64,000 nucleotides of DNA from Torpedo marmorata (lineage: Eukaryota). Under the pieces are notes generated by a model. It made no database searches, was not told the DNA's origin, and was given only the letters and a program-made list of their open reading frames with translations. The stretch lies in contig OZ360220.1 in assembly GCA_977017645.1 (NCBI GenBank), positions 224,564,001 through 224,628,000 on the forward strand. Direction: 5' to 3'. The translations under genes and the position numbers were made by a program. Below, one piece after another: positions 11,802-59,900 of this stretch. Numbering within the stretch: position 1 is the stretch's first letter; each line of letters starts with the position of its first letter.

Positions 11802-12657
11802 TCTTACCCGGAATTGTATAGATGGCGGTGCTGCCGGAGCCGCTGTAACGGCAGCGCTGCCGCTGGTGCGGAGCCGCGGGGAGCGGACATACAGCGCTCC
11901 CGCGGGGTCCAGCCGCCCAGTCGACTGCCGTCGGTTCCGCACGGGCTTTGAACGGCCCGTTAAAGAAGCCGACGGTGGTTTTATTTGAGATCCCGCGACC
12001 GCGGGGTCTGCGCCCAAGATGGCAACGCCTATTAATCGGCAGCAGCCACGAGGGGCTGCAGACTCCGGGGAAGCGGGGGACTGGAGCAGGGCACCAGTGG
12101 ACGGGAAGATCACCACCGTCTGAGAAGGAGAAGCGGAGGAGACGACCCACGGGACGGTGAGCACAGCGGCGGACCGGTGAGGGGCTCTGAGGCTGAAGGA
12201 CCAGTGCATGCGGCGGGCTGCTGGCGACACGAGGCGAGGAACCCGCGGAGGCTGTGGGCTGCTGGAGACTGCTGTCGGGGGACTCACGACGGGCTGCGGA
12301 CTGCTGGAGGTTGGCTCGAACTGGCTGGAGGAGTACCAGGTATCGGAACCGGGATGTGAGGGGGTGCTGAGGGCGACCTGACCGTGTTGGAGGTTCGGAT
12401 CTGGAGCTCGGGATGCCGATCATTTGGACTGGACTCTGTGTGGCTGCGGAAGCGCTGGAGGCGAATCTATGGACACTCGGTGACTCTGGGGGGACTCTCT
12501 TTTGCTTCTCTTTCTCTGACTGTAAGGAATGTAAGAGGCGGTTAGGCAATTTCTGCCGATGGCGAATCTGTCTGCCTTGCAGCAGGCAAAAAGAAATTTC
12601 GTGGTATATGACACTGTCTTATTGCTATGACAATAAATTGAAATTGAATCTTGAATT
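11802..12657 (+). mobile_element. CpG-rich non-coding retroelement with a LINE-type 3' tail
   Basis: GC-rich block with AGATGGCG/AAGATGGC motifs and a tail ending gacaataaattgaaattgaatcttgaa. Related copies at 25486-25707 and 42917-43680. Confidence 0.75.
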
Positions 12658-16180: not shown

Positions 16181-16396
16181 TAAAAGGTTCCATTATTGTC
16201 ACGTAATACTACATTTAGAATGTAACATACATGAAATTCTTTAATTCTACCGTAAGGCAGACAAAGGGTCGCTATTTTGTCCAGCACCCCTCACAGAAAC
16301 CTACAACACCTGGTGTTCCCAGGCGGTCTCCCCTCCAAGTACTGACCAGTCCTGTGCCTGCTTAGCTTCTGAGATCAGACAATCCCAGTCGTATTG
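16181..16396 (-). mobile_element. 5S rRNA-derived SINE (SINE3-like), copy 1
   Basis: Minus strand gtctgatctcagaagctaagcaggc...cagtacttggaggggagaccgcctgggaacaccaggtgttgtagg matches the 5S rRNA box A/box C region, followed by a non-5S tail. Confidence 0.88.
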
Positions 16397-16869
16397 ACTG
16401 GAGAGAGGGTTCCCCTAGAGTCTAGAACCAGAGCCAAGACAATAGCTGTACAAGAAAGGACAACGTTCAAGTGAGCAATCGGTACAAAAAATAGAATAGG
16501 AATAAAAGTTGTAAAAAAAAAAAAAGGGCAAGGTCAATTTTATCAGGCTAAGTTATTTACCGACAGCAGACTGAAAACAGCAACTCAAAGTAAATAAATC
16601 TCAGGGCAATGGAGCAAAATTCAAGGCGTTTATGGCAAACATGTTCCCTCAAAGAAAAAGGGTGGAACTGCCAAATCTAGAGTATCTGGATGATAAGATG
16701 CACAAAGGGCCAGATACCACAAGGTTAATACATACAAATTTGAGAAGAATGTACAAAGTAGAGAAATTAAATTAAAAAGCAATTTAGTCAAGCAAAGAGG
16801 GGGCATGAAAGACCAAGAAGATAATGAAGGATAGGACTGAGATGTCTGTGGGGAGGCAGAGGAAGCTGA

Positions 16870-20384: not shown

Positions 20385-21510
20385 AAATTCAGAATCAGAA
20401 TTTATTGTCATGAACAAGTCACAAAATTCGTTGTTTTGCGATAGCATCACAGTACAAACATTTATATAAACCACCTCACAAAGATAATTAAAAATAGTGC
20501 ACAAAAAGTCAAAGTAAGGCAGTGTCTTTGGTTCATTGATCATTCAATGGCAGCGGGGAAGAAGCTGTCCTTGTGCCGCTGAGTGCTCGTCTTCAGGCTC
20601 CTTAACATTTTTGCTGATGGTAGCAGAGTGAAGAGGGCATGGCCTGGGTGGTGGGGGTCCTTGAGGATAGAGGCTACTTTCTTAAGACACCGCCTCTTGT
20701 AGATGTCCTTGGAGTGAAGTGTAGTGCCAGTGATGTCGCAGGCCGAGTTAACAACCCTCTGGAGTTTTTGCGTGTCCTGAACATTGGCACCTCTGTGACG
20801 CAACCAGCCAGAATGCTCTCCACGGTACATCCGTAAAAGTTTTCGAGAGTCTTCGGTGACATACCGAATCTCCTCAAACACCTCACAAAGTATAGCTGCT
20901 GGCGAGCCTTCTTCGTGATTGCATCAACATGGAGGCTCCAGGACAGTTCCTCGGAGATGTTGACACCCAGGAATTTGAAGTTCCTGACCTTCTCCACTAC
21001 TGAACCCTCGAATGTTGAGTGCAAGGTTGTTGGTGTGACGCCACTCAAAGAGCTGATCTATCTCCCTCCTGTACGCTTCCTCATTGCCGTTTGTGATTCT
21101 GCTGACAACCGTGGTGTCATTGGCAAATTTGTAGATAGCATTGGAATTGTGCCTGGCCATACAATCATGGGTGTATAGTGAGTAGAGCAGTGGGTTAAGC
21201 ACGCATCCTTGAGGTGCGCCTGGGTTGATAGTTTGATAGTCAGTGAGGAGGAGATGTTGTTTCCAATTCGTACTGTCTGTGGTCTTCCGATGAGGAAGTC
21301 AAAGATCCAGTTGCAGAGGGGGGTGCAGAGGCCCAGGGTTTGGAGCTTGTTGACCAGCAATGAGGGAATAATGGTGTTGAAGGCTGAGCTGTAGACAATG
21401 AAGAGCAGCCATATGTATGAATTGCTGTTTTCGAGGTAATCCGGAGCTGAGTGGAGAGCCAGTGATATTGCATCTGCTGTGGAGCAATTGTGACGATAGG
21501 CGAATTCAGC
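20385..21510 (-). mobile_element. 5'-truncated Rex1/Babar LINE
   Basis: PLLYSLYTHDC, YKFAND, FKFLGVNISE, KKARQQLYFVR, HPGHALFTLLPS; tail gacaataaattctgattctga. Confidence 0.88.
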
Positions 21511-23179
21511 CGCGGTGAATCATCAAGTTCAATTACACAATAGAACTAGTAAAAATTATTGCAATTTCTCTGCTCTTTCAAGATGATTTTGTGTGTAACA
21601 TAGACAGGGGACTTTTCCCAAGCATTGATGCATCCTGTATTTTATTTTCATTCTGTTACTGCATAGTATATATTTGCTTAAAATACTTCAGTTTCCATTA
21701 CTAAATTAGCCAAGGAGACTAAATGCAGTTTTCCCAACGATTATTTAAAAATTATTTTAATGCTTATCATAGCATTACTTCCTGTCATTATGAACAGTGG
21801 CTTGAAGTCTGCATAATGGCTAATCTGGGCCCTCAAACTGACTCTCTTGCCAAGAAAATTCAAAACGAAAACCTCAAGAGGCAAATGCAAATCATCTTTT
21901 GAAAAGAAAACCCAATCGTGCATCACAAGCAAGATGGCAGGCTCCCTAATGTGAAAATAATGCCTATTATTCAGCTCTGTTTCCTCAGCTGCCAAACCAA
22001 TCCCCATGGGACCAATAATTTCCAGGCTGTAAGAAATAAAGGAAGCATGTCTGAAAAACAGACCTGAGGCCCATGACAACTCATTTATCCTCACTAGCTT
22101 AAACTCAAGCATAATGTGGTTAATGCACGAATAACCGCATCGTGTTGATAAATAACTTGATGTGCTGTGAATTCAAACAATTAGATGGTCATTAAACGCC
22201 AAATAATATTATATAATTCTATGCTGCACCTGGTGTAAATTATGACATTTTAATTCACCTACATACTCATTATGATACATGTTATGCATGTGTGGCTAAC
22301 TGCATCTTAATGAAAGAAACATAATAGGGGAAAGAACAAAGTACATTCAAGCATTAAAAATGTCATTTTTAAAGATGACCTCTATACACATGAGGAGAGT
22401 AATTAGCAGAGTACAAGACAAGCTAAGGATTTTCATTGGCTTATCAAGCCCACATTATAGTTTGAAGAACTGAATTTTGTTAGAATTTAAGAGAGGCAAT
22501 TGTAAAATGTCATGGGCAATTTGTTATGAAGACACAAAAACTATACATCTCAAACAATCGCAAATTAAAGTGTTTCCTACATAAAGAAGAAACCTGTTAA
22601 TTTCCATTACTTTCTAAAATGGTAATTGACTATCCAATTTGGACAGGAAATTATTTATGTCATTCAGAAGCATTGGAATAAAATTGCTTGAAACTGTTTT
22701 CTAGACACAAAATGTGCATTTCAGGTGTGCCAATCAATCAGTACTCAAGTACTAGGCAAGACCCAGACTGGCTCCCATTCCTCACTTGAATGGATAAGCG
22801 GGTTACCAGTATTATCCACAGTGCTGAGTGGCAGCTTGCCCAATTAGTGGAAAGGAGGAACATGGGAAAGAAACAGATGCATTTTAACCACAGGAGCAAA
22901 GAATGGTTACAATAGTCAATAATGGAGATAGCAGGCAATGATACCCCACCAAATGGCCAACACCCTCCCCCTCACCTTCTCTAGCATTTTCGCTTGGACG
23001 TACAGGAGACTGGCAGGGAGTGGGAAAACTGAATCCATCTAGCACACAGACAACCTGACAGAGCTTGAAGTCCAATGAAGTTAAACGGCCTAACCATCAT
23101 CTTCTGTTTCATCAATGCTTTTCCAGCATTGCAGATCAGAAATGGATTTGTTGGCAAGTTTATACAGTATGCAATCTGG

Positions 23180-25485: not shown

Positions 25486-25707
25486 CCGGAGGCTGCGGAA
25501 GCGCTGGAGGCGAATCTATGGACACTCGGTGACTCTGGGGGGGGGGGGGGGGACTCTCTTGCTTCTCTTTCTCTGACTGTAAGGAATGTTAGAGGTGCTT
25601 AGGCAGTTTCTGCCGGTGGCGAACCTGTCTGCCTTGCAGCAGGCAAAAAGAAATTCCATGTAATATGACACTGTTTTATTACTATGACAATAAATTGAAT
25701 CTTGAAG
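25486..25707 (+). mobile_element. 5'-truncated copy of the CpG-rich retroelement
   Basis: Near-identical to about 12441-12655 (ggctgcggaagcgctggaggcgaatctatggacactcgg ... gacaataaattgaatcttgaa). Confidence 0.85.
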
Positions 25708-37559: not shown

Positions 37560-38200
37560 ATTGTGTTTCATTCTGGTCACCGCATTATGGGGAGGATGTG
37601 GCAGCTTTAGAGAGGGCACAGAGGAGATTTACCAGGATTTTTTTTTCTTTTTTTTTTTTAAAAAAAGAGATAGAGCACAGCAACAGGCCACTCCGGCCCA
37701 CGAGCCCGTGCTGCCTAAATTACACAAGATGTTGCCCCAATTTGGAGAACACATTTTATGAAGTAAAAACACAATGCTGGAGAAACTCAGCAGGTCAAAC
37801 AGTGTACTTTATATAGCAAAGATAAAGATACATAACCAACATTTCAGGCTTGAGCCCTTCATCGAGGTACCTTGGCTCAAGTCTGAAACGTTGGTTATGT
37901 ATCTTTATCTTTGCTATATAAAGTACACTGTTTGACCTGCTGAGTATCTCCAGCATTGTGTTTTTACTTCAACCGCGGTGTCTGCAGACTTTCATGTTTT
38001 ACTTCATAAAATGTGTTCTCCAAATTGAGGCAACATCTTGTGTAATTTAGGCAGCACGGGCTCGTGGGCCAGAGTGGCCTGTTCCTGTGCTCTATCTCTT
38101 TTTTAAAAAAAAGAAAAAAAAATCCTGGTAAATCTCCTCTGTGCCCTCTCTAAAGCTGCCACATCCTCCCCATAATGAGGTGACCAGAATGAAACACAAT
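37560..38200. repeat. About 640-bp imperfect palindrome centred on back-to-back PLE tails
   Basis: 37560-37768 is the reverse complement of about 37997-38200, and 37760-37857 of about 37874-37970. Confidence 0.92.
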
Positions 38201-38330
38201 ATAAAGTACACTGTTATACCTGCTGAGTTTCTCCAGCATTGTGTTTTAACACATTTTATGAGGTAAGATTGACAGCTTGCTTGGGCTTTTCTCTTTGGAG
38301 CGACAAAGGACGTGAGGTGACTTAGTGGTA

Positions 38331-38758
38331 CCATATATGCCGGCATACAAGACGGTCCTTCAACTTTAAAAATGTCACCCCAAAACCAGGGGTCATCTTA
38401 TACACCAAGTATAAAAATCCGAAACTTAACAGCAAAGTCTCAGCGATCCCCCGTGGGGTCCATCCGCCCAGTCCGACTGCCGTTGGCTCCGTACAGGCTT
38501 TAAACGGCAAGTTAATGGAGCCGAGAGTGTTTATTTTAAAATATGCCTATAAAATTTAAACCTTTACTGGGTAGTTTGCTTTTAAAATATTGTGAATTAG
38601 TCTATTAAAATGTGCCTAGCAGCATCACTCCACTGGTCAGCGCTAAGTGCCAGACCTGGGGTAGACTTATACAACGAGTATAGCTCAAAACCTACATTTT
38701 AGGTGGAACTTCAGGGGTCGTCTTATACGCCAGTCATCTTATATGCTGGCATATACGG
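38331..38758. mobile_element. Tc2/Kanga-like (Tc1-mariner superfamily) MITE
   Basis: TIR ccatatatgccggcatacaagacg / catcttatatgctggcatatacgg; TA TSD at 38329-30 and 38759-60. Confidence 0.85.
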
Positions 38759-39569
38759 TATACAAGATTACAATAGACATAAACAAGGTGTACAGCCAGC
38801 TCCTTTTCCCCAGGGCAACAATAGCAAATAGCAGAGGACATCAATTTAAGATGATGGAGCAAAGCTTGGGGGAGATGTCAGAAGTATTTTTTTTGGTGGG
38901 TGCCGGGAATGCATTGTCAGGATGGTAAGAAGGACATTGAAATCACTCTTCGATAAGCACATGGATGAAAGAAAAATAGTTATGGGCTGGGAAGGATTTG
39001 ATTGATGTGAAGTAGATTTACATAGATCCGCACAACATCGTGGGCCAAAGGGCTTGCATTGTGATGTTCTGTTTTATGTTCTATTTTCTGAGAATGGAGG
39101 GCATGGTGGTTGGAAATTAAAAGCTGTGGGAGAAGGGTACCAATGACAGTAGTAGCAGTAGTGTTGGGACAAAGGGAGCATTTGACCAAGAGTGATATAG
39201 AATGTGGTGTATGGACTTGATAAAATTGAATTAGACTGAGTTGTACATTAAAAGGGTGATAAGGAAGGAAGAGCAAGGTTTGACTTCGTTCTATTCTCAA
39301 GATACAGTCATTGTCTTTCCTAAATTATGTCCCATATTACAAGGCCATTGCCTTAATAGTCAACCAATTTCACTGGTCTAGGCAGATACAGATAAGACAA
39401 TAATGATGGGCACTATTCTTTCCTTAAGAATACTAGATGATCCAGCTTGGTTTTTATGATAAACCAGTAGCTTCATCATTATCATTGCTGATATTGAGTA
39501 GGACTGGATTAAATGTAGGAAGGCAGTATGGAGGGAAAGGAGGAACCATAAATCAGGGATACAAAACCT

Positions 39570-40855
39570 CCAGACCACAATCAGTGAGGATTGGTAAGAA
39601 CATCTCCTCCACAATCTCCATCAGCACCGGAGCACCACAGGACTGCGTTCTTAGCCCCCTGCTCTACTCACTTTACACTTACGACTGTGTGGCTCGGTAT
39701 GACAATAACACCATCTACAAATTTGCTGACGAGCACCAATAGCCGGAATATGACTGGGATTGTCTGATCTCGGAAGCTAAGCATGCACAGGACAGGTCAT
39801 TCCTTGGAGGGGAGACCACCAAGGAACACCAGGTGCTGTAGGTTTATGTGAGGGGCGCTGTACAAAGTAGCGACCCTCTGTCTGCCTTTGAGTAGACAAA
39901 AATTAAAGAATTTCATGTATGTTACATTCTAAATGTAGTATTACGTGACAATAGTGGAACCTTTACATTTAATGGGTTGTATAAAGAAAGGCGATGAGTC
40001 AGCATACAGGAGGGAAATTGAAAACTTGACTGATGGTGCACCAACAACAACCTTGTACTCAATTTCACCAAAACCACAGAGCTGATTGTTGAATTCAGGA
40101 AGGGGAAACCAGAGGTGTACGATCCAGTGATCATTGAGGGAATCAGAGGTGGAGAGGGTGAGCAAATTTAAGTTCTTGGGAGTCACTATCTCAGAGGATC
40201 TTTCCTGGACCCAACACACTAATGACCATGAAGAAAGCACGCCAGCACCTCTACCTCCTCGGAGGTTTGGTATGACACCAGAAACCCTAGCAAATTTCTA
40301 CAGATGTGTGGTGGAAAGTGTGCTGACCGGCTGCATCACGATCTGACATGGGGACAATACCCCCAAGCAGAAAGCCCTCCAAAAGGTAGTGGACACAGCC
40401 CAGGACATCACAAGCAAAACCTTCCCCACTATCGAGAACGTCTACAGGGTACGATGCCGTCGGAGAGCAGCAGCAATCATCAACGATCCACACCACCCAG
40501 CACATGCTCTGTTCTCGCTGCTGCCATCAAGAAAGAGGTATAGGTGCCACAAGACTCGCACCACCAGGTTCAGGAACAGCTGCTACCCCTCCACCATCAG
40601 ACTCAACAACAAACTCAGAGGCTCATTTAAGGGCTCTTACTTGTGCACTTTATTGATTTCTTTTATTCTCTCTGTATTGCACAATTTACATTAGTTATCT
40701 GTTTACAGTTATTTATTTGTTTACGTGTACATTGTGTACAGTTTTCTTTTGCACTACCAATAAGTGGTAATTCTGTCTCGCCCACAGGGAAAAGAATCTC
40801 AGGGTTGTATGTGATGTCATGTATGTACTCTGACAATAAATCTGAAATCTGAAAA
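39570..40855 (+). mobile_element. 5'-truncated Rex1/Babar LINE interrupted by the 5S SINE
   Basis: RPQSVRIG, GAPQDCVLSPLLYSLYT, YKFAD, FKFLGVTISEDLSW, HPAHALFSLLPS; tail gacaataaatctgaaatctgaaa. Confidence 0.88.
39741..39971 (+). mobile_element. 5S rRNA-derived SINE (SINE3-like), copy 2, inserted in a Rex1 LINE
   Basis: gtctgatctcggaagctaagc...ttggaggggagacc...caccaggtgctgtagg plus the same tail as copy 1; interrupts the RT right after the YKFAD motif. Confidence 0.88.
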
Positions 40856-42520: not shown

Positions 42521-42916
42521 GGAGAACAGAGAAAAGAATTTGGAAAGTAAATTAATATCTACAGCCAGCTTGACCCTTCTCTGAGGCCCCGTCCTGAAGA
42601 TGGGGACAAGATATTTCCATAAAATTGGTAGATCTCACTACCATTTCATTTCAAAAATCACATATTCCATTTAATTGTTTTGAAAAGGTAGTCACCTTCA
42701 AAATTCTTCCCATGTTTATGGAAATAAATTTGTATTAAAATGATTGAATCGCATGAACAAATACTTAGATCACATTTACTGATTTAAGACAGTCATTTTT
42801 ATAAGAGCAATTTGTCAGTAAACTTTGATCTCCAAATTCAGCACAGAATTAATGTTGTTACAAACAATTAGTATGATAGGTTAGCTCACATCTAAATTTA
42901 CGAAACAGTCATCTAT

Positions 42917-43680
42917 AAGATTCAAGATTCTCTTATTGTCATGTAATAAAACAGAAAATGCAATATTGCACATATTTCCTTCAGTTTGCTGTAAGGCAGA
43001 CAAAGAGTTGCATTAGCCTTACTGTAAGAGAAAGAGAAGCCACAAAAAAAAGTCCCTTCAGAGACACTGAGTGCCTACAGATTCATCTCCAGTGCTCCTG
43101 CAGCTTCTGCAGCCACACAGACTCCTGTTCCATCCGTTGGTAACCCAAGCTCCAGATCCAAACCTCCAATACAATTAGGAAGCACTCAGTGCCCCAGGCC
43201 CCTCGGGAACTCTTCTTGTCCTCAGCACCCTCTCCAATCCCGGTTCCCATGAGCCAGCCTCCAGCAGACCGTGTAGTTCCTTTGATCGCAAGTCGCAAAC
43301 AGCCCGCAGCCTGTATGGGTCCTCAGCAACTGAACCCCTTGCTGGTCCGCTGCCGGTTACCTTCCTGGAGAGTCATCTCCTCTGCTTCTCCTTCTTAATG
43401 GGGGAGGTGGGGGCGTTCTCCCTGATTCTGGTGCCCTTCGCCGGTCGACTGCTCCCCTTGAGTTTGCAACCCCTCGATGCCGCTGCAAGCACAGGCGCCG
43501 CCGCCATCTTGGGCAGAGGCCCCGCCGTTGCCCAATTTTAAAATGAAACTCCTTTAACAAGCTGTTTAAAGCCTGTACGGAGCCATTGGCATTAGGACTG
43601 GGTAGTTGGATTCAGCAGAGGAGCGTTGTGTCTCCACTCCCCGCTCTCCCTGGGTCTGCACTAGCGACAGCGTTGGCTTT
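42917..43680 (-). mobile_element. Diverged copy or subfamily of the CpG-rich retroelement
   Basis: Minus strand has cccaagatggcggc, ggatctggagcttggg and ggctgcagaagctgcagg, plus the tail gacaataagagaatcttgaatct. Confidence 0.75.
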
Positions 43681-44121
43681 TTTTAAAATGCAGAAACAGA
43701 CAATATAATCTTGCTCAATATATTTGATCCATTTTTCAAAACAAAGTCTGTTAACAAAAAAATCCACTTGGAGGGCAGTGATTTATTGAAACTCCATCTT
43801 AGATCTGAATTTGAAAGAGCATGCCTGTTATGATGCAAATAGCTTAAAGACTGGGAAGACTAATAGTTACATCCATACATTGGATAGCCATTGACAATAG
43901 AAGCTCAAGTCAAACTTGATACGAGAAACTTAGTTATTTATGACTTCTGCAAGGCCTTACTGAATGTTTTATTAACTAGATGAAGATATTTAATTGAATT
44001 TTACATACAAGATTTAACAAAATCATAATGGCTACTCTCATTAACTGCAGAGATACAAAATTATCAAGTCTGTATAAATTAGTTTTTCAGTTCAATTTTT
44101 TCCACTTAACCTCCTAAAAGT

Positions 44122-53800: not shown

Positions 53801-55641
53801 TATCTCCCACCCATGCTTGTAACCAACCACCTCCTACCCATAAGTCTACTGCCTCAACACCTGGCACACCCCCAACCTGAGACATCTACGATCATCCCCT
53901 CATCAAATGACAGAGGATGTGGAGGAAAGGCTTTCCTCATGCACGGTTAATCTCTTGTATTACAGATTTTTCAAACACCAAGCGCTTGTACAAAGCATTT
54001 GATTAGCATCTGTCTAATGCACCTCTGGCAGGCACTAACCAAATCCCAAGACAAAACATCTAATTTTATATTACAACATTGCACATCACTAATTAATTTC
54101 TATTAAACCTTGTGCAATTGTTAAAGTAAATTGCTAAAAATTAGCACATTGTAAATCAGTATGACACATCAGTAGCAGCAATAGACAAATGAACACAATC
54201 TGATAACAGAATGAGTAAAACTATTCTATACAGAAGTGCAATTTAAATAACTTTTGATTCCCAAAAATCTAGAATGACTTTTGGTTCTTTAAAAAGCTTA
54301 AAAGATCAAGCCCAAGTCCTGATTTCTTAGTTTAATTATGAGCATTTAGTGCATGACCCCCATTGTCCTTTACACTAGGTCACGTCCCTTCACGATGGAG
54401 GCAGATGCCATAAAATGGGTCAGGCTTTATTCATACCGCAGCTGTTGTTAGTATGAATAGATAGACTTCTGTTGTCTGCTTCCCTATGGGAGACAGGTTG
54501 ACACACTGCACGTTTAATGATGGAGCAAAGGTCCCAAGATTTGTCAGCCCAATTTTATGCTGCACTGGCTTGTCAAGATACACCGGTGTCTTTTATGCAA
54601 AATGATGCATGTGTCAGAGCATGAAACCAATTGTCCTACACAAAATAATTATGAAAACAGCCAATGGAAGTGTGAGAGAAAAGACAAGCAGAGTGACAGA
54701 GATAACTAGACCAAAACTGGTAGAGTATTTCATGAATCCACTGCCTAGTTAGGGAGACAATATTGCCATTTTGATAAGCGTTTGTAGTTTAATTGATACC
54801 TCAATTTTCTTAATTAAGATCTATGACCTTCAAACATATTCACCTCTCAGAAATTAAGTGGATATTTAGATGCAGTTGGATTTTAGGCACAACAACCGAA
54901 CAATTAAGGGACTAGTCCAAAAATTCCATGTACCTAGATGGAGAATGTGGCCAGGTTCTGCATGAATAGTTTGCAGCTTCCTTAACAAGAGGAAAATGAA
55001 GACAGCATTGTAACTAAAGAGAAATAATGTAAAATGGATGGGGTAAGTATGGCAAGGAAGAAAGCATAAAAGGGTTTAGTATCTTTAAAATTGGATAAAT
55101 GGCAAGACCTAATGAAATATTTTCCAGGCTGTAAAGATGACATTGAGACTCTTTTCATCACTATAATGCCAGCGACTGGAGGGCTCCTAAGTCTACCTTT
55201 TTGTTTTACTACAAATGAAATGTAGCTTCATTACTAGATAAATAATGAGAAACAATTCTGAGGAACAGAATAAATAAGTTTACTTAAGCACAGATTAATT
55301 AGGAACAGTCATTATGAATTTGAAGGAAGGAGCTTCCTTTCTTGATGGAACTTTTTGAGAAGAGGAGGGTAGTCAATGAGCACTCTGTTGTTCAATTTTT
55401 AACAAGGCCTTTGACAAGATCCCAAGATAGACTGGTCAAGATAAACATTGGATCTGAAGTCACCTCTGAGACAGGAAGAAGCAGTCAAAGGTTCATGCAC
55501 GTTTTTGAGATTGGAAAGCCTTTCCCAATTGAGTTCCTCAGGATTCCATACTCAATTTCTTGCATTTTAGAATGTATATTAAATACTTATACTTACATAC
55601 AGGGGCTATGATATCAAAGCTAGCAAATGCATCAAGATATA

Positions 55642-56905
55642 CAGTGTCCTCCATAATGTTTGGAACAAAGACTTTTTTTTCCTTTATTTGCCCGTGCTCC
55701 ACAAATTTAAATTTGTAATCAAACAATTCACATGCAATTAAAGTGCACATTCTAGATTTTATTCAAGGTTATTTGTATAAATTTTGTTTTAGCCATGTAG
55801 AAATTACAGCACTTTTTATACATTGTAAAGGGACTGGTATTCCAAGACCTCCGCTGCTGATGATAGAAGAATTCTCATCATAATGAAGAAAAATCCCCAA
55901 ACGTCTGTCCGACAAATCCGAACCACATTTCAGGAGGCAGGTGTGAATATATCAATGACTACTGTCTGCAGAAAACGTCATGAACAGAAATGCAGAAGCT
56001 ACACTGCAAGATGCAAACTGTATGGTTTGGATCTTGGGTAGTTCCTTTACGCCTCCACACTTTGCTCTTGCCATCACTCTGATGCAGGTTAATCTTGGTC
56101 TCATCTGTCCATAAGACCTTTATCCAGAATTCTGCAGGCTCTTTTAAATACTTCTTGGCAAACTGTAATCTGGTCATCCTTTCTGTGGCTAACTAGTGGT
56201 TTGCATCTTGCAGTGTAGCCTCTGTATTTCTTTTCATGAAGTCTTCTGCAGACAGTAGTCATTGACATATACACATCTGCCTCCTGAAGTGTGTTTCTGA
56301 TCTGTCGGACATACATTTGGGGATTTTTCTTCATTATGATGAGAATTCTTCTGTCATCAGCAGTGGAGGTCTTCCTGCGAATACCAGTCTCTTTGCGATT
56401 ACTGAGCTCATCAGTATGCTCTTTCATCTTAATGATGTTCCAAACTGTTGATTTTGGTGATCCTAAGGTTTGGGCGATGTCTCCAACTGTTTTATTCTTG
56501 TTTTTCAGCCTCATAATGGCTTCTTTAACTTTCATTGGCACAACTCTGGTCCTCATGTTGAAAAATGGCAACTACAGACTCCAAAGGTGATCAAAAACTT
56601 AGAAGCAAGCGTAGCTTTCTTATACCTGCACCAATGAAGCAACTAAACATACCTGAGTAATCACAAACATCTGTGAAGCCAAATGTCCCAAACATTATGG
56701 TGCCCAGAAATGAGGGGTGCATGTATAAAAAGTGCTGTAATTTCTACATTGTCAAACCAAAATGTATACAAATAACCTTGAATAAAATCTGGAAGGTGCA
56801 CTTTAATTACATGTGAATTGTTTGATTACAAATTTAAATTTGTGGAGCATAGGGGCAAATAAAGGAAAAAGAGTGTCTTTGTCACAAACATTATGGAGGG
56901 CACTG
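55642..56905 (-). mobile_element. Tc1-family transposon, internally deleted, with long TIRs and an internal inverted duplication; inserted in an old CR1 fragment
   Basis: cagtgtcctccataatgtttgg / caaacattatggagggcactg with TA TSD; about 180-bp TIRs. Transposase N-terminus IAQTLGSPKSTVWNII..RKTSTADDR..ARCKPL, then RLQFAKKY..VLWTDETKINL. Confidence 0.93.
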
Positions 56906-59900
56906 TAGATAGTCTGGTAAGTTAGGGAGAACGACAAATAGAATTTAATTCAGTGAAGTGTTGTATAACTATTTGTGGAGGTGCATCAATCCAAAACAAA
57001 GGCAATAGATAGGAGGATAATGAGAGGCCAGAAAGTACAGAGCAACTTCAGAATACATGTCGAGGAATCCTCAAAAATAAAAATCGGCTGAACAAATGGT
57101 CTTGCTTTACTAGGAAAGATGCAAATCCACTGGAGAGAATACAGGGAAGATTCAAAAGGATGTTAACAGGACAGAAAATGTGTAACTGTTCAGAAACAGT
57201 GGATAGGTTGGGTAAGTTTGCTTTAGAGCAGAGGAGGCTGATGGGAGACAATCAAGCTATGACTGAATTAAGCTGCATAAAATTATGAAGGACCTAAATA
57301 CGAGTCAATTGGAAGGACCCATTATTCTTTACAAAAGAAAAAGGTGGATAACATTTAAAGTAAATGTTAGAAGGATTGCAGGAGGGATGAATAAAAATAG
57401 TTTTCACTCAGAGTTAAGAATGTGGAATTCAACGTGTGAGAGTAGTCGATAGAAATTACATTGAAAAAGCATTTGGATGTGTTCATGAAGCGCCATGACC
57501 TGCAAGCTAGTGAATTAAAGGTTAAAGTTGGGGTGGGATAGGCTCAATTACTCTTTTACAACTGCCATCAACACAATGGGCTGGATGGCCTCCCTCTCTC
57601 GTGTCAGACACAATTTCAAAGGTTATCGGGGATATTTAATCAGGGGCTCAAGCTCCATTTCTTCTTGGGGAAAAAATATTGCAAATTTAACCATTTTGAA
57701 TTTGCTGGTCTTATGATGCATATCAATTTTAATTTATATACATGGCCTAATTCTGCTCCTATCTGTTAAGGTCTTAATGATGATTTTTTTTTTTTTTTTT
57801 TTAAACTTGGGAGGTATAGAGATTTACAGAATATATATTTTTGTATATGCAGAATTTTCAAAGCATCAGGATATAGATTTTCCTTGGAATATACACAGAC
57901 AAATAAACACTGAACCGACAGGGTGCATGTTTATGTTAGATTGATTTCTACAGTCAGATTTTGCACTGTCTCAAGATCGCCAGTTGCATGTAGGCTGCAC
58001 CCATTTTTTCTCGCATGGTGCAAGCCATAGTCTGCAATTGACTTTTGGTAATGCATGGCTTTTCCCAATGCAAGTCATTTTCTCCATTGACTAGAGCAGT
58101 GAACAGTTTTGGCAACAGTAGGGCTCCATCGCCAGCTCACTGCCTGTCAACCTGGCTGTTGAACCTGAACGATTATGAATTGATCAATCTTAAACATTCA
58201 AAATCATGCTGGACTTGGCAAAAATGTGTATTTGAAAAATAGACTAACCAACAGGTAAAAACATTTCAATGATGACAATCAAATTAAAGAGAAACCTTCA
58301 TTCACTTTTTCCACTGGTTTTAATGGTCTCACAGACTTGTTTGTGTCAGGTTAACTCGTCTGACAGCCCCACCCTGAGCGCCAAAAAAAATCCCATGAGC
58401 AATTCACCAGCAAAATCCTAATAAATGGAAGTTCCTTCTTACTTTTCTTAACAATTCTACATTACCTCTAAACAGATGTTGTGAGCTGGTCCAAAAGGAG
58501 AGCTGTTTAAATAAATTAAGGGTAACTTTGTCAGGTAGGTTCTGGATACAGTGCAAGGAGCTGTTACAAAAGGCCCCCTTTACAACTGCACAGCCACAGA
58601 ACAAGCAGCTCTGCAAGCACCTGCTTGGTTTATAGGTGGAGCAAAGGCATAGATCAATATGATCTAGTTTCTCCTGGCAATCATCCAAATGAGAACTGCA
58701 CTCAGAATAATGTGAAAAATTGTTCATCTATGCAGACATATTTTTTTTAATAGTAATGCATAGTCAGATATAACAAGCTTTTAAATTTGACCAGACACCA
58801 ACAATGTATTTTGTATTTCATGCTTAAAAAGGTGTGGATTTTCAGAAAAGGATGTGAAGCTAGTTTGCAGCAATTATGGAATAATGAACATTATTGATCA
58901 ATAAAGTAGACCAATTTAGTTAAAGGGAAGGTTATGAGAATGGAGAAGGAAGAAATCAGACACGGAAAAAGAGGAATGAAGGGCAAGAGTGGAGAAAATT
59001 GAGATTGTAATTTTATGCAAGGCTCAATAATCATGTGTACTCAATGCAGCATAGAAAATATATTCTTGAACATTACTACAGCACTCTTTCAGAACAAACA
59101 CCATGTACCATGAGAAAGAAAATGAAGGTCACCATGCTTCTTCATCTACTTGACTACAATAGCTTTCCAGAGGCAAACTGATGGTACATCAGCAATTGAG
59201 AAACTGAAAAAAAAGTTTAAGCTGTGTCCAATTCTTTTTATCAGCAATAATCCAGAGCTTTTCATTTTCATCTCCAGTTGTGATGTAATTTTGTACACAG
59301 ATGGATTAACTCATCTTTGTCCAAAGACGTCATTGGTCTTTGCAAGTCCTAATCCTTACAGCGGCATGTCTAATTATCATTAGAAAGTGTCTAGGAGAAC
59401 TATGAAAATCAGCAGGGTATCTTCACATGAGCAATTAACATAAATTGGTAAACAAGGAATCTGAATTTGCCAAATTCTCTCATGTATGAAAAAATTGAGG
59501 ACAGCCTCTATGAGAGTCTATTTTTTTCAACATACCGTAATAGAAACATTTGAATTTTATCCATTCATTTTTGATTGCTAATATATTGTAAGGAAGGAGT
59601 GAAGCAGAAAGCAGATGTACCAGCACTTACATGGATCAGAATAGCATGCAAGGCTCATTTAACAAAAATTGTGGGTGATTGACAATCTGGATATAATTCT
59701 CCAGTTAAAAAATAGAGAATGGTCTCTCGAGACCAACCATACATTCTGACTACATTTGACAGGCCATTTGAAAATACATACCACACTAGCCACAGATGTC
59801 CATGCACCTTGTAAACATTTTAGAATGTACGCAAGAGTGAAGTTTCTTATACATGGAGTCTTTGCAAGGATTGAAGATTTGCAAGGATTGAAGTACATAC

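Follow-up and report, generated by a model that had tools for sequence, protein, structure and literature searches.

A young dispersed 5S rRNA-headed SINE family in Torpedo marmorata, with a tail likely derived from an older non-coding element and copying likely by a Rex1-like LINE

Introduction

SINEs with a 5S rRNA-derived head are uncommon, representing 2.3% of SINEBase according to the available text of PMC10946416, and in the accessible portions of the literature they are recorded on CR1/L2, RTE or I-type LINEs (PMC7245038, PMC3747384, PMC10886601, PMC6274825, PMC5786205). The zebrafish SINE3-1, AmnSINE1 and OS-SINE1 join a 5S head with an internal promoter to a LINE-type tail (PMC3747384, available part), as does the SINE described here. 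Unlike the latter, these three possess a Deu domain and CR1/L2-type tails: in the present SINE, a 114-nt head sits directly on a 120-nt Rex1-type tail, with no room for a central domain. Since this tail is fully explained by a non-coding element, no central Deu domain was recognized, and the family is set apart from DeuSINEs by its layout, not by the Deu sequence.

Ped-1, CoeSINE5, SINE-1_Pmo and HaSE3 also place a 5S head on a LINE-derived unit, and Ped-1/Ped-2, CoeSINE4/5 and HaSE1/HaSE3 are pairs of tRNA- and 5S-headed SINEs with a common 3' part, as found here (available text of PMC5786205 and PMC3747384). The partner of the four 5S-headed elements is an RTE LINE, whereas here the tail group is Rex1-like, with no more than a hint of a two-ended body. 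The clades recorded as giving two-ended units are RTE, Ingi, Vingi and R2, as far as the available parts of PMC5786205 and PMC2746220 go. One SINE-Rex1 pair appears in the accessible text of PMC3747384, SINE2-5_NV with Rex1-24_NV of a sea anemone; this SINE is cnidarian and tRNA-headed, and is likened to the present one by description, not by sequence. HE1, SacSINE1 and SINE2-1_CM/CmiSINE come from the same host class, the cartilaginous fishes, but have tRNA heads and CR1/L2 partners; in the available portions of PMC3747384 and PMC5499810, the SINEs recorded from this class are tRNA-headed only. The tail of CmiSINE, like the one studied here, came from another non-autonomous element (PMC5499810, available part).

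Here, we analysed a 64-kb stretch of T. marmorata DNA, hereafter the window, together with the genome around it. We propose, with a probability of about 0.7, that the window contains two copies of a young dispersed 5S-headed SINE, likely propagated by a Rex1-like LINE and bearing a tail that likely comes from an older non-coding element. The published papers searched contain no description of the family; Repbase or Dfam may already include it.

Results

Two SINE copies in the window

The initial annotation had reported two elements with a 5S-derived head. The Rfam RF00001 model was indeed placed on both heads, at 38.7 bits for copy 1 and 25.4 bits for copy 2 (cut-off 38), and the two copies are 89% identical over 218 nt (Table 1). 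Copy 1 lacks 16 nt at its 5' end and has a 5-nt tail deletion in hairpin 1. For copy 2, first delimited at 39741-39971, the 3' end was retained and the 5' end moved 9 nt further out. Its insertion left the host LINE about 8 nt short; this host, a family A fragment, has its own two-hairpin tail, which ends near 40845. The tail of copy 2 is composed of a linker of about 30 nt, hairpin 1 (39879-39898), hairpin 2 (39913-39948), a GACAATA motif and a CCTTTA-type repeat. The shared tail, initially put at about 120 nt, measured 120-127 nt.

Inverted pieces of the element were seen at its own 5' junction, over 6 nt in copy 1 (16396-16401), over 34 nt at locus L028 (1461-1494) and as a long inversion around locus L118, which suggests fold-back or twin priming. 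Elsewhere in the window, positions 55637-56910 and 37762-38250 are long local inverted repeats, with arms of about 190 nt at 89-91% identity and nested inverted copies of a short repeat.

Table 1. Coordinates of the SINE copies and related elements within the window
Feature	Position	Strand	Remarks
SINE copy 1	16183..16395	-	family positions 17-234; 5'-truncated
Copy 1 head, 5S rRNA-derived	16298..16395	-	Rfam 38.7 bits
Copy 1 box A	16353-16367		box limits as we take them to be
Copy 1 box C	16320-16337		box limits as we take them to be
Copy 1 tail	16183..16297	-	
SINE copy 2, near full length	39732..39971	+	inside RT region of Rex1-like LINE
Copy 2 head, 5S rRNA-derived	39732..39844	+	
Copy 2 box A	39775-39789		box limits as we take them to be
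Copy 2 box C	39805-39822		box limits as we take them to be
Copy 2 tail	39845..39971	+	linker, two hairpins, end motif, terminal repeat
Host Rex1-like LINE fragment (family A)	39560..40850	+	broken RT and C-terminal region
Rex1-like LINE fragment, family B	20385..21520	-	young family, intact copies elsewhere; candidate mobiliser
Non-coding element, full-length, ~830 nt	11820..12650	+	young subfamily
Non-coding element, 5'-truncated copy	25491..25705	+	
Non-coding element, older copy	42915..43700	-	tail 72% like SINE tail over 92 nt

A dispersed family of tens of thousands of copies

Both window copies are members of one dispersed SINE family of ~240 nt. Exact head-tail junctions were found 18,967 times genome-wide and never in the reversed control, so that the family is not a chance match; exact tail matches numbered 23,705, with 0 in the control. 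Corrected for divergence, these counts correspond to about 28,000 copies (from the junction) to 39,000 (from the tail), which answers the call of the initial annotation for a genome-wide copy number. The 215,681 rough RF00001 candidates in the genome were left out of the copy count. The best 40 of 1,404 candidates, the self-match apart, are 93-95% identical and lie on 22 contigs of the 6.2-Gb genome. All 30 fetched loci contain a single full copy, with flanks that are unrelated except in two duplicated pairs. Thirty copies ordered by position differ by a mean of 2.3% from their majority and have common ends, the start falling within the first 6 positions in 19/30 and the 3' end being reached in 28/30. 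The family is thus shorter than 1 kb, interspersed, not tandem, and of at least 100 copies, the features by which SINEBase recognizes a SINE (available text of PMC3531059).

A spot sample of 40 x 10 kb (400 kb) contained 0 copies where 1.8-2.5 were expected, indicating either an uneven density or a copy estimate that is somewhat high. The density seen in the window, 2 per 64 kb, was therefore rejected as a genome average.

The true 5S genes lie in tandem on a single contig, separate from the SINE copies, and tandem 5S rDNA was rejected as the nature of these elements, in keeping with the dispersed SINE that had initially been proposed. The spacer of this rDNA (units of about 3.1-3.8 kb; L031-L036) contains a fragment of a family B LINE. 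Another tandem array, at C47:6615554-6635284, has a 40-80-nt spacing and includes the first part of the SINE tail; it is possibly a satellite derived from that tail.

The head retains the 5S promoter

The SINE head is identical to the genome's own 5S gene at 92/114 positions, colinear from position 6, well within the limit used for SINE3 elements (60% identity or more to 5S rRNA across 60 nt or more). Identity amounts to 20/33 over positions 6-38 and 22/22 over positions 39-60. With box limits that we take to be those of the 5S promoter, box A matches at 13/15, the intermediate element at 5/6 and box C at 15/18 positions. The genome's 5S gene ends in T5, and the family majority has no run above T3. 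On these comparisons, the head pattern is that of a promoter kept with RNA structure and terminator lost. The same comparison agrees with what had first been read: box A, a T-to-G change that falls at 5S position 84, and TTT immediately after the head.

All copies have in common 22 differences from the true 5S gene, one junction and a fixed 120-nt tail; these common changes and the extra body distinguish them from 5S pseudogenes. An explanation by 5S pseudogenes, by units of 5S rDNA or by isolated chimeras between 5S RNA and a retrotransposon RNA could draw on the copy 1 head, which scores above the Rfam 5S cut-off, but it is at odds with the 22 common differences at one junction, with flanks unrelated apart from the two duplicated pairs and with true genes confined to one tandem array. 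The shared diagnostic changes and the dispersal refute it for practical purposes, and a dispersed SINE family is retained.

A non-coding element is the closest relative of the tail

The fold of the SINE tail comprises two hairpins (z -4.2); the GACAATAA end motif and a 6-nt repeat come next. A terminal hairpin of 15-16 bp is the same in the SINE tail and in LINE family A. In 14 aligned tails, the hairpins are kept mostly by invariant positions or one-sided changes, with two-sided changes in 1/19 pairs, so that covariation lends the two predicted hairpins slight support.

The closest non-SINE relative of the tail is a GC-rich non-coding element of ~0.8 kb, present in three copies in the window. 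From the junction to the end, 97/119 positions of the SINE agree with the old subfamily of this element (30 copies, 7.3% diverged). Among tail hits below 87% identity in 1.08 Mb, 17/19 have the non-coding element upstream and 2/19 are tail-only. The element has a fixed 5' start and no long ORF, with about ten near-full copies in 400 kb, and its subfamilies, including loci L222-L251, are about 3% to over 7% diverged. Only 2/30 old-subfamily copies have a same-strand RT fragment upstream, each fragment being different, and we read these fragments as insertion hosts. We regard it as a likely polymerase II-transcribed parasite of Rex1-like LINEs. Its derivation from LINE A or B by simple deletion was rejected, since apart from a short start motif their 5' UTRs gave no match. 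A different repeat, at 38450-38536 of the window and at loci L022, L076 and L116, has about 90 nt in common with the 5' part of the non-coding element, beyond which it diverges into AT-rich sequence.

These alignments make it likely that the SINE tail derives from this older element and not, as first annotated, from an autonomous partner LINE. No LINE with the same tail was found at the loci examined in three pattern searches, 0/30 (of 197), 0/30 (of 359) and 0/20 (of 20), searches that would miss a LINE differing inside the pattern. One LINE with similar last 20 nt, at L141, was rejected, the tail being separate from the adjoining LINE. Direct borrowing from an unsampled autonomous Rex1-like LINE that is rare, extinct or lost, with the non-coding element as a sister borrower, appears unlikely to us. 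It is the usual route for SINE tails (PMC3747384, available part), and the searches relied on exact-match patterns or samples with only five LINE tail types compared; but the homology with the non-coding element reaches the head junction, the three targeted searches yielded no such LINE, and the count of 23,705 tails is near what the SINE alone explains.

With derivation from the non-coding element as the preferred origin, we looked at the other heads carried by the same tail. Among the loci read (30/197), some copies were truncated or had internal deletions, three had a 5S head with a variant junction, and three had a tRNA head. In this last group (L161-L169), the head is tRNA-Thr(TGT) in 3/3 copies; this sister has only 9 exact junctions in the genome and a tail about 4% diverged. 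Some 5S copies, at L113, L114 and L129 near 1500, display three T-to-C changes at the junction on a derived background. These changes perfect a small hairpin and match the tRNA-Thr-headed sister, and template switching or conversion is suggested as their source.

Rex1-like LINEs as candidate partners

The end motif of the SINE, followed by 5-7-nt repeats, also closes several LINE families that have an RT (RVT_1) and a PF09004 C-terminus; in the two main LINE clusters this ending comes after RT and PF09004 in 40/45 and 26/37 ends. The terminal repeats are of 6 nt in the SINE and 6-7 nt in LINEs A and B. The tail had been assigned to the GACAATAA-ending group of local Rex1-like LINEs, and end motif, two hairpins and terminal repeat all agree with this. 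Families A and B are called Rex1-like here partly from motifs that we presume to be those of Rex1. Rex1 elements have 3' ends in 5-7-nt repeats, according to the available text of PMC4635592.

The RTs of these LINEs share 55-65% identity with those of teleosts. The Rex1/Babar name given initially found no backing in nomenclature, as none of the 240 listed homologues is named Rex1. The peptide encoded by the published Rex1 forward primer is present in 97/240 of these homologues; that of the reverse primer is found exactly in 0/240 and in a relaxed form in 61, of which 54 lie 570-573 nt away, the published amplicon being of about 550 bp (PMC4635592, available part). At the DNA level, the published primers match A and B at 12-16 of 21-24 letters, no better than other RTs, and this comparison was set aside.

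Mobilisation by a non-Rex LINE (CR1, L2 or RTE), the situation in other vertebrate SINE3 families, is very improbable. The published vertebrate SINE3 partners are CR1/L2 or RTE in the accessible parts of PMC7245038 and PMC5786205, CR1-like LINEs are also found in this genome and the clade name of A and B is provisional; against this stands the succession of RT, PF09004, end motif and 5-7-nt repeat in the two LINE clusters. A CR1-like ORF of the genome is 77-78% identical to skate and devil ray proteins and 55-60% to shark proteins, which makes a batoid (ray or skate) the likely host.

We infer that a Rex1-like LINE mobilises the SINE. Across the five LINE tail types compared, the tail of LINE A has a weak similarity to that of the SINE (p 0.010; 0.020-0.043 without the end motif; 0.055 with the motif fixed), and for the four families B-E the similarity is not significant. 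With copies 5-9% diverged (n = 9), family A looks older than the SINE. In LINE B, 11/22 copies are at most 3.1% diverged, and five copies picked for intactness (L282-L286) have intact frames of 989-1,072 codons; what its tail shares with the SINE is limited to a 10-nt block, a short hairpin and the end motif. The best mobiliser candidate is family B by age and family A by tail shape. The two families have a short motif in common at their extreme 5' ends, and the 5' end of family A resembles its own 3' hairpin region.

A possibly two-ended body

The SINE body may itself be two-ended, as in RTE-based SINEs, a Rex1-like LINE supplying its first ~30 nt from the extreme 5' end and the remainder from the 3' end. 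This reading is compatible with the main explanation, which it would refine, and we consider it tentatively, leaning somewhat against it. For the first 32 nt of LINE B, the best alignment lies immediately past the head junction, at 21-22/30 positions of the family majority (p 0.013-0.15) and up to 28/38 of copy 2 (p 0.003-0.02), and the match falls at the same place in the tRNA sister and, for 4/6 queries, in the old non-coding element. These p values are post hoc and uncorrected; most LINE A 5'-end queries are not significant, and against the non-coding element none is. Moreover, LINE 5' ends match LINE 3' tails similarly (p 0.003-0.07), indicating that such matches arise easily.

Insertion scars

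The initial annotation had also suggested a search for target-site duplications. Duplications of at least 5 nt flank 26/100 copies versus 23.1 in the control, and those of at least 8 nt were 3 among 100 copies versus 0.6; long duplications were rejected, their frequency not being above the control. Empty sites in host repeats were located for 20/102 copies. Comparison with these sites revealed an overlap in 15/20 (12 of them of 2-5 nt, lengths that include microhomology with the element ends) and a loss of 3-28 nt in 5/20. What the suggested search yielded is therefore very short overlaps or small deletions in place of long duplications.

Occurrence in other organisms

The stretch was detected in twenty sequencing runs from eight organisms and ten studies, one possibly being the source. 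Contigs bridging the junction were found in 5/8 runs checked (organisms C, E, G and H); in the other 3/8 (organisms B, D and F), no listed contig bridges it by 31 letters per side. In organisms C, E, G and H, the letters at two head sites are 5S-like and those at three tail sites donor-like, so that an older form of the SINE is present there. None of the runs is listed as RNA; two that are presumed to be RNA contain the family in contigs, which give neither transcript starts nor strand. In one run of organism E, seven contigs have a tRNA head at the junction.

Discussion

Taken together, these results are best explained by the capture of a tail by a small-RNA head. At the origin, such a head would have been fused to the 3'-terminal ~120 nt of the non-coding element of 0.8 kb, and the 5S or the tRNA-Thr head would later have replaced the other at the same junction. 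RNA polymerase III would start at the internal 5S promoter and read past the lost terminator through the tail. The Rex1-like LINE protein would then bind the two-hairpin end, with target-primed reverse transcription begun at the 6-nt repeat, so that insertions would carry very short duplications or lose a little host sequence, some copies being truncated at the 5' end. Recognition of the tail probably depends on its shape and on the terminal motif rather than on extended sequence identity.

A more elaborate joint reading would make this the first 5S-headed SINE described in cartilaginous fishes, the first 5S SINE on Rex1 machinery, and a third-hand build: a two-ended Rex1 unit in a non-coding polymerase II parasite, captured by tRNA-Thr and 5S heads and spread on a LINE matched only in tail shape and terminal motif. 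As a whole, we regard this combination as rather doubtful. If the third-hand, two-ended reading were true, Rex1 would join the four clades yielding two-ended non-autonomous units.

The general understanding of SINEs is unchanged by this family. A Rex1-type 5S SINE in rays would nevertheless widen the known SINE-LINE pairings. In the series of tails carried by the LINEs, the old and young non-coding element, the tRNA SINE and the 5S SINE, the sequence varies while terminal hairpin and end motif are kept, which makes the series a natural set for testing what the Rex1 protein recognises. Finally, tens of thousands of young insertions and species-specific subfamilies would be usable as markers for ray phylogeny.
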